A DNA stretch of 64,000 nucleotides from contig OX597832.1 in NCBI GenBank assembly GCA_951406725.2, positions 65,720,001 to 65,784,000 on the forward strand, read 5' to 3'. Below are positions 3,121-62,912 of the stretch, piece by piece. The translations under genes and the position numbers were made by a program. Source of the DNA: Octopus vulgaris. Lineage: Eukaryota. The number at the start of each line of letters is the position of its first letter. Position 1 is the stretch's first letter. Below the pieces are notes generated by a model. It worked only from the letters and a program-made list of their open reading frames with translations. It was not told the DNA's origin and made no database searches.

Positions 3121-3460
3121 TTAAGTATATATATATATATGATTTAACTTATTAAACAGGGTTCACCATATCCATTTATATTTGCCGTAAATGGAGGAGA
3201 TTGGATGTTAATATAGATGATAATTTTTTGTGAATAAATAAATTATCGTCCATATTAACATCTAATCTCCTCCATTTACGTAAAACATAAATGAGTTTGT
3301 TGAACCCTGTTTAATAAGTTAAAACATACACTTAATACATCTATATAACTTTTCTTATCTACACCAGTAAATTCAAAATTAAGTATGAAGAAACAACGTT
3401 ATAAATCTTTATGGAAATTACTCCAATTAAAGAACGAATTCGCACTCAACATTTTTAATA
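3121..3460 (+). mobile_element. Fold-back element 1 (arms about 3121-3226 / 3240-3335, unique tail to 3460) within (TA)n
   Basis: TTAACTTATTAAACAGGGTTCA pairs with TGAACCCTGTTTAATAAGTTAA; CGTAAATGGAGGAGATT pairs with AATCTCCTCCATTTACG. Confidence 0.9.
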
Positions 3461-6400
3461 TATATTTATATATATATATATATATATATATATATATATA
3501 TATATATATACATACATAATTATGTATATGTATACATATACATATATACATATTTATATATATATTATATATATTTATATGTGTTCGTGTACGTATGTAT
3601 ATAGTTATATGAGAAATAAATTTTATTTATTTCTACAGAATTGTTGTTTTGCTTAAGATTAACATCTAAATTGTGAATATTCCGCAGGTGAAATAAAATA
3701 ACTCTTTAATTTCAATAATCTATCTTACTTTGTGGGAAGCAAAATGAAACTTTCATAACGGCGATGAACAAAGGGAAGATGCCCATTATGTATACCTGGT
3801 AACTGCTATGTTACTGATGAGACAAGCACGGACAGAAATAAATATTTATTTTGCCATTCATACTGGGAGACTAGTTTTTTTTTATTTATATAGTGTAGAA
3901 TATGTGAAGAAGAAACATAGTATAACTGCTCCAGTTTCAACAAAATCCATCGTGAAATTTGAACGTATGTCAAACCGAACCTCCTAAATCATATATTATG
4001 GCAGTTATTGATAAATATACAAGAATAATTATCTTAGTAAACATTAAAGAGAGGTAAACTATGGAATATTCTGTTTCAGGGTTGCTTTCTAAGATGTAAC
4101 TCAAGCTACCTCGATTGATATGACGCTAGACGTCAATTAGACAGCGTACAAAATATAAAGACATGGCGATAATTCATATACTTAGTATGCAAATACACTT
4201 AAGTTATATGATATAAGATGCCTGTATGAAAAAAAACAAAAAACAAGTCATATACGAAAATTAAAGTCGATAAAAACAAATACATGAAACTAAATTTTTC
4301 CAAAGTTTCACGATTTACGGAAAAACTTAATTTTGTCTTCTGTCGAGCAAACCCGTATACACATTGATACACATTGCACACAGACACAATAACAGAAACA
4401 CGCACAGACACAGACACACACACACACACACACACAAGCACACACACACACACACACACACACACACACACACAGGCACAGAAACACATACATACACTTT
4501 TGTATAAGTATATAACTTATAGTTATATGCATATACATGCATAGATACGTATATAAATACATATGTGCATGTGTGTGAGGATCGCACAGAGAATATGACG
4601 GACTCGAGGGAGATATATTTGCTATTTCTTGCTGATCTAATCAGCCCATTCCTGGTTCCTTCCTTTTTCTGTCCCTTTGAACCCCGTCTATTTTACTCTC
4701 AGAATATTTAACACTTCGTAACTACATGAATCGCTGAATCATTACATATGATGTTGGAAGATCAAAAAATATATTTTGAAGAATTCTTTTTCCTTTCTAT
4801 ATGTGTGCAGCTGGAATTTACTCGGTTCAAAACTTGAATTCCAACGATTGTTTAAGAAAGAAATGCTAGAGACAGTAATAAAAAATAAACACCCCAGTGT
4901 GACTACTTTCCTTTAGCTTCTCACTACATCTCTCTCTCTCTCTCTCTGTGTGTAACTTTGTGTGTGTACTTGATGAGAAAACTAATGTAAAAGCAGGAAG
5001 AAATATTGAAGAGGAAAGGAGAGTTTGACGTCATGCACATATATCTTAGAATATTTCGTTAATTAACATTACCACTCTCCCAAATTAATGCATTTTCCCC
5101 CAATTCGCTAATACTAGTCTTTTAAATTTTAGTTCAATCTCTATCTCTCTTCTTCACAGAGAGTTAGGTTGTTGCATTAGTGAAATTTAGCTGATATTTC
5201 TAGAAATAAATTTTGCCTGTGTGCTGAAAAATATTAATAAAATATCCGGTTTTTAGTTGCTTGTTTTGAAGTTTGTGAATACAAAGCAGAAGTAATATAG
5301 ATTACAGGCAATTTACACATCCAGAAATACACATCACACGCACAAACGACTATGCATATGTATAAGTTTATATATAAACGTACATAGCGAAGCATGTATG
5401 TATGTGTGTTTAAATCTATCTATCTAAATATATATATACAGACATATATACATATGTATATGAGCATCTATATACATATATATGCCTGTATGTCTGTATG
5501 TGTGTGTGTTTGTGAGTGTGTATGTTGTGTACGTGTGTTTGTGTGTGTGTGTGTGTGTGTGTGTGTGTGTGTGTGTGCGTGCGTGGTATGTGAGTATGTG
5601 CGCGTGCGTGTATGCATCGTGGTGTTTCTTAAGATTAAATCCGAAATCTATTCTGCTATTATAACTTCAACTCCATTAAGATGAAGACCGTATTGAATTA
5701 AGAAGTTAACATGAGACGTGACAAATTGTTTCATTATCACGAGGGACAGGTGTACACAGTTAAGAAGTAATTTAAGCATCAATTCTACATTTTACGCTTG
5801 ACGCTTTGCCCTCGCCTTTTATAGTATTTCAGCGAGTATTTTTGAATTTCAATTATTGAAATTGAGGGGAAATCGTGGTGCACGCTTTATTTAATTGATT
5901 CTGTGCGAACTATTTCCCAGTTTGGCAGAATTATCTCAAGTAAATGAGATAACTTGCTATCATGGTAGTGTAATTAATTTCGTGCTTATGGCCAACGACC
6001 TACATTAAACATTTTTGTATAAAAGAAAACGAAAGTTAGACACAAGTGTTATATTGCGGTATTAGGAATTTAAGGATGCTATGATGCACATTATCAAGTG
6101 TGCTGATATATGACGCTGAAATTAAAACCAAATCTAAAAGGAGAAAAATTTGAGAAATAGACGTGCTCTTTTACACTGAGGGATGTACGGTTGTATTTGA
6201 GATTCAAGGTTTTAGTTATAGGATACAACGCGATCGCTAATAAGGCGCTATGGTGAACATAATGGAATTTAGAAGTTTTCCAGAGATATGGGAATATGTG
6301 AGCCAATGCACGCATTTAACTGTGTGTTCACATGGAAATCTTCGAACTCTTCTATGATGTGTGATTGCTTGTTTCGTAGATAAACATGTTGTATTCGTTT

Positions 6401-6715
6401 CATGTGTACACATTATCTGTTAATGTCTCACATGTGCTGAGCTGACAATAATCATAAAAGATACTCAAATAAATAATAAATATATAAATGAAAGGTTTTT
6501 GGTCACGTGCTGAAAACTCTTTGAAGCAGTGGAATCAGCGCTACAATATTTTATAATAAACACAGAGAAAATGCAACTTCAATCTGCTGCTTTATATTAT
6601 CATATTAGGCAGGAGCAGGTGGCTACAAAACTGCAAATCTTGCACGTTGTAATTTAATATCTCTTTAGGTATATCATGCAGCAAATGATCTCCCATTAAT
6701 AGACGCATAAATAAA

Positions 6716-6848
6716 TACATACATACATACATACATACATACATACATACATACATACATACATACATACATACATACATACATACATATATATATATAT
6801 ATATATATATATATATATATATATATATATATATATATATATATACGT
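6716..6848. repeat. (TACA)n-(TA)n microsatellite
   Basis: Direct reading. Confidence 0.95.
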
Positions 6849-7476
6849 ATATATTTAGAACTTACTTGGAAAAGGATGCGTGGCGTTCGATCATATAATA
6901 ATATAAATAATATATAAATATATGCATATATGCATACATATATGGACATACATACATCTATGTATATATACATACATATATGAGTACAGGACGTCAAAAA
7001 AAACGTTGAACACAATGAGAAACTAAAATATAAAAACAAAAACATGGAAACGAACTCTTTTTAAAACAACGAAAAAACAGAGTACAAGACATACAACACA
7101 AGGAATAATCCCATTCTTCAGTTGTCCCTGAACGTCTACTCCGCGTTGAAACAGTCCTTCCCGCAAACCAAATTAAATAAAATTTGGGTTTTTCGCGGAG
7201 GGTAAAAGTGGTAACAAGAACAGGACTGTAAGAACAAAACAAGATAGTAAAAACAATACAAATAAAAACAGTAAAAGACAGAACAAAGAGAATAACACAG
7301 TAAAAACAAAGGATGAGGGCTGTTAAGCCAAGACGATGGAAAATTTATTCTGAACGTTTGAGTAAACAGTTTATGAGAGAGACGGATTAAGCGGTCTGGT
7401 CTTGGTGAATATAGCAGTTGGAAAGTTGGCTTCCCTTTGATCACGTGTCAGTGACAAGAGAGTATACACGGATATA

Positions 7477-61200: not shown

Positions 61201-61234
61201 CTGAACATTCAATATTCATTTGGTTATATTTCAT

Positions 61235-61395
61235 CAGCCGCTACGTTCTGAGTTCAAATTCCGACGAGATCGACTTTTCTTTTCATACTTTCGAGGTCGA
61301 TTAGATAAGTATCAGTTACGCACTGAGGGTCGATGTAATCAACTTAATACCTTTGTCTGTTTTCCCCCCTTGTGGGCAATAAAGAAATAAATATT
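61235..61395 (+). mobile_element. SINE family C
   Basis: GCCGCTACGTTCTGAGTTCAAATTCC...TTTCGAGGTCGATTAGATAAGTA. Confidence 0.8.
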
Positions 61396-61732
61396 CACAT
61401 GATTACTCTAATAGCTGGAAATGGCACACAAATATCCCTTAACTTATTTTGAATGCTATTAAAGGAGAACGAAAACATTATTTCATGCAGTTTACACTCC
61501 TTATATATAAGTGTAGTTTACTCAACGTTATACATTGAGAGTAGGTGAGCTAAGTCGAGACAAACCATGTGTTAGTCATGCGATCCTTTGTCTCTGTAAC
61601 TTTATGAAATAAATGAGAACGCTCATCGGAATTGGTTACATTTTGTTAGATCAGTTTAAATCAGCAACATTTTCCGGTCAAACATGCGATACAACTCCAT
61701 CTTATATATATATATATATATATACATACATA

Positions 61733-62912
61733 TATCTATAAAATAATTTGTTACAATTACTCAATAGACAGGATAAAACTCTGAGTTTTAGATGCCGAAG
61801 TGGAAATCCACAACACCATCTCTTCGGTTATCTGGCCATCTGAAAAAACGCTATGAAAAAATACCGTTATATAAAGGGAAATTATTGTGTTATAGTTCTG
61901 CTACTTATATAAAATAAGATTAAAATTTCATAGTCTAGTCATACGCTCACATGTGCGCTCGCGGACCCACGTGCGTACTTTATACGTCACTATGAAAACG
62001 TACACATCTTCACTCGCATTTTTCGCCAAATATATACGCATATATATACAAACTCATACACACACACATGCGTACCGTAAAAGTTCATACATACGTCTAT
62101 ATACGCACAAGCACAAGAAAAGCAATGGTTAAAAATAACAGAAAAAAAACAAGGAAGTATACAAAGCATAAAGACCACGTTCATATACGGACATGCCCTT
62201 ATGCACTCATACACATACGCCCATATATGTACATACCCGCATATGTTTATATACGCATACACACACACGCATATACAGAAAATGAATATACATATGCCCC
62301 CCCCCAACCCCCCCTAAATAAATGAAAAAATACTAAGTAAAAACGTCTATATATATATGCATTCTTATGCCCGCACACACGCACGTATCTAAACCACCCA
62401 CTCATACATATTCACACACGTGTACAAATGAAACTATATACACGTCTATATAGGCACAGGAATAAATGCAGGATAGAAAAGTACAGAAAAATACAGAAAA
62501 AATTATCATGTGTGAAAATATAAAAATATATGAAATGATAAAAGGTATAATGAGATAAAAAACCTTTTGGGACATAATATAGAAAGCAAGTTATAAGTAC
62601 GCACGTGGGTCCGCGAGCGCACATGTGAGCGTATGACTAGGCTATGAAATGTTAATCTTATTTTATATAACTAGCAGAATTATAACACAGTAATTTCCCT
62701 TTATATAACGGTATTTTTTCATAGCGTTTTTTCAGATGGGCAGATAACCGAAGAGATGGTGTTGTGGATTTCCACTTTTGCATCTGAAACTCAGAGTTTT
62801 ATCTTGACTATTGAGTAATCGTAGCATATTATTTTATAGATAAATTTCCTCTATTTACATAATATTGAGGTCTCTTTCTTACTTTTGTTATCTTACCGTT
62901 TTTACCAATATA
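61733..62912 (+). mobile_element. Fold-back element 5 (about 250-bp arms 61733-61984 / 62592-62842, about 607-bp spacer, unique tail to 62912) within (TA)n
   Basis: CTAGTCATACGCTCACATGTGCGCTCGCGGACCCACGTGCGTACTT is mirrored exactly, and pairing continues along the whole arm. Confidence 0.93.
62743..62803 (+). ncRNA. Type I hammerhead-ribozyme-like motif (U4C core variant)
   Basis: GAUAA-CCGAAGA-GAUG...CAUCU-GAAAC-UCAGA-GUU/UUAUC. Perfect 5-bp stem I and near-palindromic stem III (AACUC-A-GAGUU). Mirror copy at 61772-61832 (-) has AAAAC instead of GAAAC. Confidence 0.6.

Follow-up and report, generated by a model that had tools for sequence, protein, structure and literature searches.

Inverted 5'-truncated copies, one-sided tails, hammerhead ribozymes and targeting of (TA)n have been published for Penelope-like elements (PLEs; PMC8557442, PMC3846280, PMC4209133), and pairs of hammerheads on opposite strands lie 100-700 bp apart in them (PMC4209133). 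The Hydra clade of PLEs is marked by RWK and DKT motifs, a CxCx5C linker, and CxxC plus CxH instead of CCHH (PMC8557442). Recently active Penelope families have been reported from an octopus, in an account given without structural detail (PMC13282606). We analysed a window of 64,000 nt from Octopus vulgaris (contig OX597832.1, positions 65,720,001 to 65,784,000), a 2.8-Gb genome rich in AT and microsatellites. An initial annotation had described six inverted-repeat elements there as a candidate self-priming 'hairpin retrozyme' system without open reading frames (ORFs). Our results show that the window elements are real and that most of them are commonplace PLE insertions; they do not amount to a new hairpin-retrozyme system. 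Five of the hairpins are, in the reading that we favour with some confidence, short 5'-truncated head-to-head inserts in (TA)n that belong to Penelope-like families with hammerheads and probably arose by priming on both target strands.

Inverted repeats were detected by self-BLAST with low-complexity filtering and by repeat finding, and all six were present with arm identities of 67-97%: element 1 at 3138-3328 (86%), element 2 with arms at 28468-28789 and 29503-29824 (97%), element 3 at 29964-30088 (92%), element 4 at 36326-36667 (91%), element 5 at 45413-45659 (67%) and element 6 with arms at 61730-61980 and 62595-62845 (94%). In each, a single arm extends into a tail (67 to ~280 nt across the window's elements) and most outer ends are (TA)n or mixed microsatellite, as had been annotated; element 4 does not follow the pattern at its ends, its tail being clipped (47/84 nt) and neither end lying directly on (TA)n. 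The tails had also been called unique. When arm plus tail was used as a query against the octopus's own genome, with 40 candidates scored per family, the first-look candidates numbered 466 for element 1, 1403 for element 3, 2072 for element 4, 908 for element 5 and 1711 for element 6. In these five elements, arm and tail are members of multicopy families, here numbered after their elements, and only element 2 was without a close copy. We examined 25 loci each of families 1, 3, 4 and 5 and 30 of family 6 (loci are given L numbers). All five families showed the pseudo-long-terminal-repeat (pLTR) arrangement, in which a 5'-truncated copy lies upstream in direct or inverted orientation and the tail is at one end.

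The coding partner of family 6 was found next to its copies. At L005, L009 and L010 a GIY-YIG-like C-terminus lies in sense directly upstream of the 'spacer' of element 6. A search with that C-terminus gave 18,259 first-look candidates; 150 were scored, many were identical, and some had open frames of 717 codons. In four such frames (708 amino acids from Met), the 3' repeat is 88-92% identical to the arm plus tail of element 6. The 614-nt 'spacer' is the 3' untranslated region of the coding PLE, beginning immediately past its stop codon. These sequences make element 6 the 3' end of a young, coding Penelope-like element, from a family whose copies are ~99% alike and have intact ORFs.

The 708-residue protein was modelled with AlphaFold (predicted local distance difference test, pLDDT, 93.8). 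When the model was compared with PDB folds by Foldseek, telomerase reverse transcriptases (RTs) were six of the ten best matches (E ~1e-8 to 1e-9), the top match being the DRT2 RT. YxDD was invariant in the aligned homologues, which were 118 of the 120 listed. Support for GIY-YIG was weak by Pfam alone (PF01541, E 0.0011; its 19.7 bits fall short of the 22.6 cut-off), and the YxG, R, E and N residues of the domain were conserved in the 118 homologues. Pfam on the whole ORF and six homologues, and a sequence search of the PDB, returned nothing useful. The protein also has RWK, DKT, the CxCx5C linker and CxxC plus CxH, without CCHH, conserved across the same homologues. Family 6 is therefore a predicted endonuclease-bearing (EN+) PLE with Hydra-clade motifs, having a telomerase-like RT and, at the C-terminus, a GIY-YIG in one ORF, an assignment made by motifs, a size of < 3 kb and the (TA)n target. 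It resembles the Hydra-clade EN+ PLEs as described by Craig et al. (2021, PMC8557442) and Arkhipova et al. (2013, PMC3846280) in its 5' truncation, adjacent inverted copy, partial tandems, one-end tail, pLTR hammerhead, (TA)n target, RWK, DKT and CxCx5C motifs, absence of CCHH and size. Their described tails are 30-40 nt long, whereas those found here are 67-280 nt, and the family-6 hammerhead core CCGAAGA with an extra U sets the family apart from those described.

To read the anatomy of young insertions, we used 80 family-6 loci covering 99 of the 150 scored rows: 19 were chosen because they were inverted pairs and 21 because of their long ORFs, and 40 were further ones. The sample is enriched for pairs, and the endonuclease-region query favours neither end. 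Mapped onto one natural copy, arms ended at two fixed sites 67 nt apart (2654 when tail-less, 2721 when tailed) and started anywhere. The 80 loci comprised 66 head-to-head junctions, 13 single arms and one complex locus that was left uncounted (L193); among the 61 loci not picked as pairs, 48 were head-to-head. Both outer ends were resolved at 58 of the 66 junctions, and all 58 joined one tailed to one tail-less arm, with 0 tailed + tailed and 0 tail-less + tail-less pairs. The other 8 had a truncated outer end. (TA) stood on both flanks in 52 of the 58, and since the flanks are (TA)n, a target-site duplication cannot be read. Five of the single arms ended tail-less and eight tailed; the tail-less ones sit within (TA)n, have the same junction and show no trace of a partner. 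The assembly retains palindromes that are almost perfect, their arms being 1.9-2.4 kb long and their spacers 35-136 nt (L185, L190, L217 and others of L185-L264).

Both arms of an insertion stem from one donor haplotype. The comparison covered 42 loci and 39,047 nt, dropping positions 2385-2450 and those beyond 2635 as unalignable. Minority alleles were shared by both arms in 92 cases, and the arms differed in 79, of which 68 were private and 4 recurred in at least two other loci. At 25 marker sites the minor allele was found 53 times in both arms and twice discordantly; when arms were shuffled across 44 loci, the corresponding values were 6.2 and 78.9. This concordance (53 vs 2) rules out two different donor RNAs per insertion. 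Apparent shared arm differences were mostly an artefact of the arm ends and were gone once positions past 2635 had been dropped.

Either arm can be the longer one. The tail-less arm reached further 5' in 17 of 46 simple loci, by 63-2540 nt in 15 of them, and at L200, such a locus, the arms showed 0 differences over 1750 nt. Family 3 was sampled with its exact tail pattern, by which tail-less + tail-less pairs cannot appear; 63 loci were fetched and, after 2 duplicates had been removed, 61 were distinct. They included 28 tail-less + tailed pairs, one tailed + tailed pair and 8 loci in which an end was truncated; the other 24 had no inverted partner and were single arms or direct tandems. Here the tail-less arm was further 5' in 19 of the 28.

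Under double-strand priming, the reading favoured here, the element protein would nick both target strands, and each nick would prime its own cDNA on the RNA of one donor. One cDNA would start at the tail end and the other upstream of it, at a second start site; their truncated ends would then likely be joined head to head. Both fixed ends would be RT start sites, as demonstrated in vitro for an anole PLE (PMC11167929), one of each used per insertion, perhaps with a protein dimer engaging both sites of one RNA. Joining could proceed via 1-8 nt of microhomology or short insertions, and families 3 and 4 might borrow the PLE protein in trans. Either arm being longer, two fixed outer ends per family and inner junctions that vary within families were all observed, the last confirming the variable fold points that had been predicted. 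The self-priming first suggested, a plain snap-back of the cDNA, fails on arm length: the tailed arm must then reach furthest 5', because a cDNA copies only what it already holds. It cannot make the 17 young loci with a longer tail-less arm, nor elements 6 and 4, and the 19 family-3 pairs stand against it as well. Element 6 is such a case because its spacer is collinear with its tail-less arm.

Several observations weigh against priming on both strands. In the young family the tailed arm is more often the one further 5' (29 of 46; 21 vs 9 outside the loci chosen as pairs). There is an excess of near-symmetric junctions, those within 35 nt: 10 of 57 vs 1.9 expected, or 4 of 40 vs 1.2 (p 0.025) once the loci chosen as pairs are set aside, in a count that excludes 9 tandem-containing or tiny-arm loci. 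Because of this excess the arms are not independent, as snap-back predicts. Four loci (L194, L219, L235, L241) show a short fold-back piece beside the tip and then a jump in the tail-less arm. A shared donor haplotype is equally expected from copy-back, and deletion during integration appears compatible with the sequences. The junction overlaps (1-15 nt in 42 junctions, with 8 blunt and 16 carrying 1-32 nt of inserted sequence) have no computed null. Coupled RTs, or an RNA 5' end common to both cDNAs, could also yield near-symmetry. A sign rule at near-symmetric junctions, with the tail-less arm slightly ahead as expected of a trailing second RT, was rejected as both signs occur in the young family.

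A serious but less likely alternative keeps the self-priming idea and adds one step. A cDNA from the tail end would snap back and be copied as far as the second site, which endonuclease cleavage would define; the tip of the hairpin would then be opened or deleted asymmetrically, so that either arm may end longer. It accounts for the one-of-each end rule, the shared haplotype and the excess of near-symmetric junctions, and it fits the four loci with a tip and a jump. Self-priming has been proposed for PLE palindromes (PMC3846280), and endonuclease-mediated resolution for the tail (PMC8557442). It requires, however, that up to 2.5 kb be deleted, and from the tailed arm only. The tail-less single arms, which have the same junction in (TA)n and no partner trace, speak against it, as do near-perfect palindromes with arms of 0.75-2.4 kb that stayed undeleted (L185, L196, L197). 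Nor was asymmetry between the arms clearly greater where the arms had diverged more (rho 0.23, p 0.17, n 36).

A distinct system in which ORF-less, rod-like RNAs are the mobile, self-priming unit seems very improbable. Families 3 and 4, as non-coding ~485-nt units with canonical hammerheads, would suit it, and so would element 2, with 97% identical arms, no close relative and an older nested inversion. No family has a fixed fold point, however, a whole hammerhead is present in only one of the six hairpins of the window, and family 6 is coding. The hairpin is a by-product of insertion and not the mobile unit, because members of the same families are also found as lone arms or in direct tandem, as in the 24 of 61 family-3 loci. 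Least credible are terminal-inverted-repeat elements, that is miniature inverted-repeat (MITE) or Foldback DNA transposons, and assembly artefacts. Long inverted arms adjoining TA would agree with the former, and the one-sided tail, variable 5' truncation, tandem copies and RT-endonuclease partner contradict it. For families 1, 3, 4, 5 and 6 it was rejected, as no fixed symmetric terminal inverted repeats bound the elements; the kinship with PLEs in the initial annotation was correct. The arms differ by 3-33%, unlike fold-back artefacts of reads. At element 2, the one of the six where junctions were checked in read contigs, the inner arm ends and spacer (28676-29616) are spanned by short-read contigs in 3 of 4 independent runs, and a long palindrome made by misassembly is therefore ruled out there.

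More tentatively than for the five hairpins, we propose that coordinated double priming is the rule by which PLEs integrate. One dimer on one RNA would make two overlapping cDNAs from two fixed sites, one per strand; the tail would be the stretch between the sites, every two-armed insertion would necessarily have one tailed and one tail-less end, and hammerhead cleavage in family 3 may set some template 5' ends.

In L1 twin priming, each of the two cDNAs copies a part of the RNA that the other does not, an internal site is variable, and a minority of insertions is concerned. In family 6, by contrast, the cDNAs would overlap and start at two fixed sites, and 66 of the 80 sampled loci are affected in a pair-enriched sample. 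Alike in both, if double-strand priming is right, are the priming of cDNA by both target strands and the inverted joining, as described for L1 (PMC2837659; 10.1101/2024.12.14.628481). An application of twin priming to PLEs was not found in the literature by title and start of abstract, and older Penelope reviews may discuss it. The anole PLE Poseidon (Frangieh et al. 2024, PMC11167929) is closer in biochemistry: in vitro it cuts and extends both strands, starts at two sites bounding the tail, has an AT-rich target and is predicted to form a dimer. It belongs to another clade, and PMC11167929, where it describes the two sites, does not tie them to the two ends of one inverted insertion.

Hammerheads with a palindromic helix III had been expected, and the families do carry them. 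Each has its own stems I and II, a palindromic helix III and a common core, and pairing is kept though the stems differ. With a relaxed type I descriptor, 5 of 25 loci passed in family 1, 4 of 25 in family 3, 7 of 25 in family 4, 14 of 25 in family 5 and 20 of 30 in family 6, many non-passing loci being truncated or decayed copies. By this pattern, the pLTRs of families 1, 3, 4, 5 and 6 contain a predicted type I hammerhead whose helix III is palindromic. In the window one motif scored 8 or more, at 62742-62804 on the plus strand in element 6 (score 10). Since shuffled windows gave ~0.7 matches with a score of at least 8, its support is the conservation in 20 of 30 family loci and not its own score. 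This type I variant, with a palindromic helix III, shares with the young copies (L185-L264) a non-standard core CCGAAGA, an extra U before GAAA and a GUU cut triplet. Of the three elements annotated with hammerheads, element 6 is complete, element 4 has the 3' half only, the fold falling within loop II, and element 5 has kept the core and lost stem pairing; the sense strand reads away from the fold, as had been noted. Elements 1 and 3 are cut 3' of the hammerhead that their families do carry. Rfam gave no hammerhead among the best 150 of 185 matches in the window, which were microsatellite-driven microRNA matches and one tRNA-like match. Minimum free energy folding of the element-6 motif (z -0.25) and RNAalifold on 10 family-5 copies did not recover the hammerhead fold, both methods being uninformative for such motifs. 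A weak hammerhead-like remnant, similar to family 5, lies at 44750-44840.

The two arms of each element were located as follows. In element 1 the tail-less arm (3121-3229, minus strand) ends in (TA)n at 3091-3120, and the tailed arm (3230-3460, plus; tail ~3348-3460) starts immediately 3' of the family hammerhead. Element 3 is a near-perfect hairpin of a tailed arm (29876-30025, minus; tail 95 nt) and a tail-less arm (30025-30088, plus), cut 3' of the family hammerhead. In element 4 the tailed arm (36256-36488, minus) has a hammerhead 3' half at 36466-36485 and the tail-less arm (36486-36667, plus) one from 36507; the latter goes 18 nt further 5'. The tailed arm of element 5 (45246-45554, minus) contains the decayed hammerhead at ~45433-45517 and faces a decayed tail-less arm (45553-45679, plus); the family tail is ~200 nt in relatives, and ~45 nt of it are deleted here. 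The tail-less arm of element 6 (61730-62595, minus) includes the entire 614-nt 'spacer' and is 89% collinear with L018, and the tailed arm (62592-62916, plus) has its tail at 62846-62912.

That the window held one ORF-less system did not hold up. Besides family 6, family 1 probably stems from a coding PLE as well, judged from one locus (L082, 1 of 25) where RT remnants and an Asn-rich frame lie upstream in sense. L082 reads as a decayed PLE RT followed by a long Asn-rich frame and, after it, the pLTR; an endonuclease could not be recognised. A coding partner of family 5 was not found in 25 loci of 3 kb. The unit is ~487 nt long in family 3 and ~485 nt in family 4, and such units stand in direct tandem at L060, L063, L136, L147 and L271 with at most ~2.3 units per array. 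No linked PLE ORF was present in their 50 loci, save an unlinked remnant at L140 (family 3), where the RT remnants lie on the opposite strand behind a SINE-like piece and were set aside as a separate insertion. Families 3 and 4 are short non-coding, retrozyme-like passengers. Like non-LTR retrozymes (PMC7229834; 10.64898/2026.07.22.740005), they have a non-coding tandem unit and a type I hammerhead and are PLE-related. The retrozyme monomer is given as 170-400 nt (PMC7229834), below the ~485 nt found here, and families 3 and 4 occur mostly as dispersed, PLE-style truncated and inverted insertions. In family 3, 25 of 54 5' ends at risk fell in a 38-nt bin immediately 3' of where the hammerhead would cut, compared with 0.18-0.28 in the bins on either side (p 0.003); the bin was picked after a pilot look, arms within a locus are non-independent, and 20-nt bins gave a broad rise only. 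We take this weak gathering of 5' ends as a lead and not as a result.

Element 2 stands apart. Its tailed arm (28188-28789, minus strand; tail ~280 nt) is single copy, its spacer (28790-29502) contains an older nested inversion (28807-28853 vs 28943-29008), and its tail-less arm (29503-29836, plus) ends in (TA)n at 29837-29875. A 39-bp duplication in the spacer (29321-29399) was in part absent from three other runs. The own-genome search returned short matches of 70-95% only, and a 24-nt arm pattern with at most one mismatch hit only its own two arms. No PLE ORF was found by tblastn, and no hammerhead in the element or in 31 weak relatives. Element 2 shares the architecture only and, by that alone, fits a candidate PLE insertion; it belongs to a young family that is rare, is a re-mobilised composite or results from arm-to-arm conversion. 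An Asn-rich reading frame lies at ~29320-29440 in it. No RNA data set was listed as containing element 2, which speaks neither for nor against its expression.

Elsewhere in the window, a seventh, older inverted pair (56015-56143 and 58285-58412, 72%) is split by the second of two LINE RT remnants (51771-54562 and 56296-57929), which we take to be L1/Tx1-like and RTE-like. The pair carries a hammerhead-like motif at 56184-56216 on the minus strand, which a shorter-loop descriptor added to the one passing motif. A 79-nt hairpin follows an (AAT)n tract (19973-20051). A transposase remnant (51182-51703), presumably mariner-like, is flanked by 37-bp inverted repeats (50698-51967), and a tRNA-like Rfam match at 46443-46515 (minus; 32.4 bits) is probably a decayed tRNA or SINE head. 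Direct repeat families in the window were all microsatellite.

Taken together, the architecture of these insertions was already known, and the additions, of moderate mechanistic value, are the counts behind the end rule, the donor-haplotype test and the record of which arm is longer. In their accounts of insertion structure, PMC8557442 and PMC3846280 treat the tail as optional or one-sided and give no count, haplotype test or statement on the longer arm. How PLEs form tandem and inverted structures has been named an open question (PMC8557442), and the insertion counts constrain the mechanism. If cleavage does set 5' ends in family 3, this would be in vivo evidence for a role of the PLE hammerhead. 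As test material, the octopus genome offers a very young and abundant family with an active-looking predicted protein, together with short non-coding passengers.

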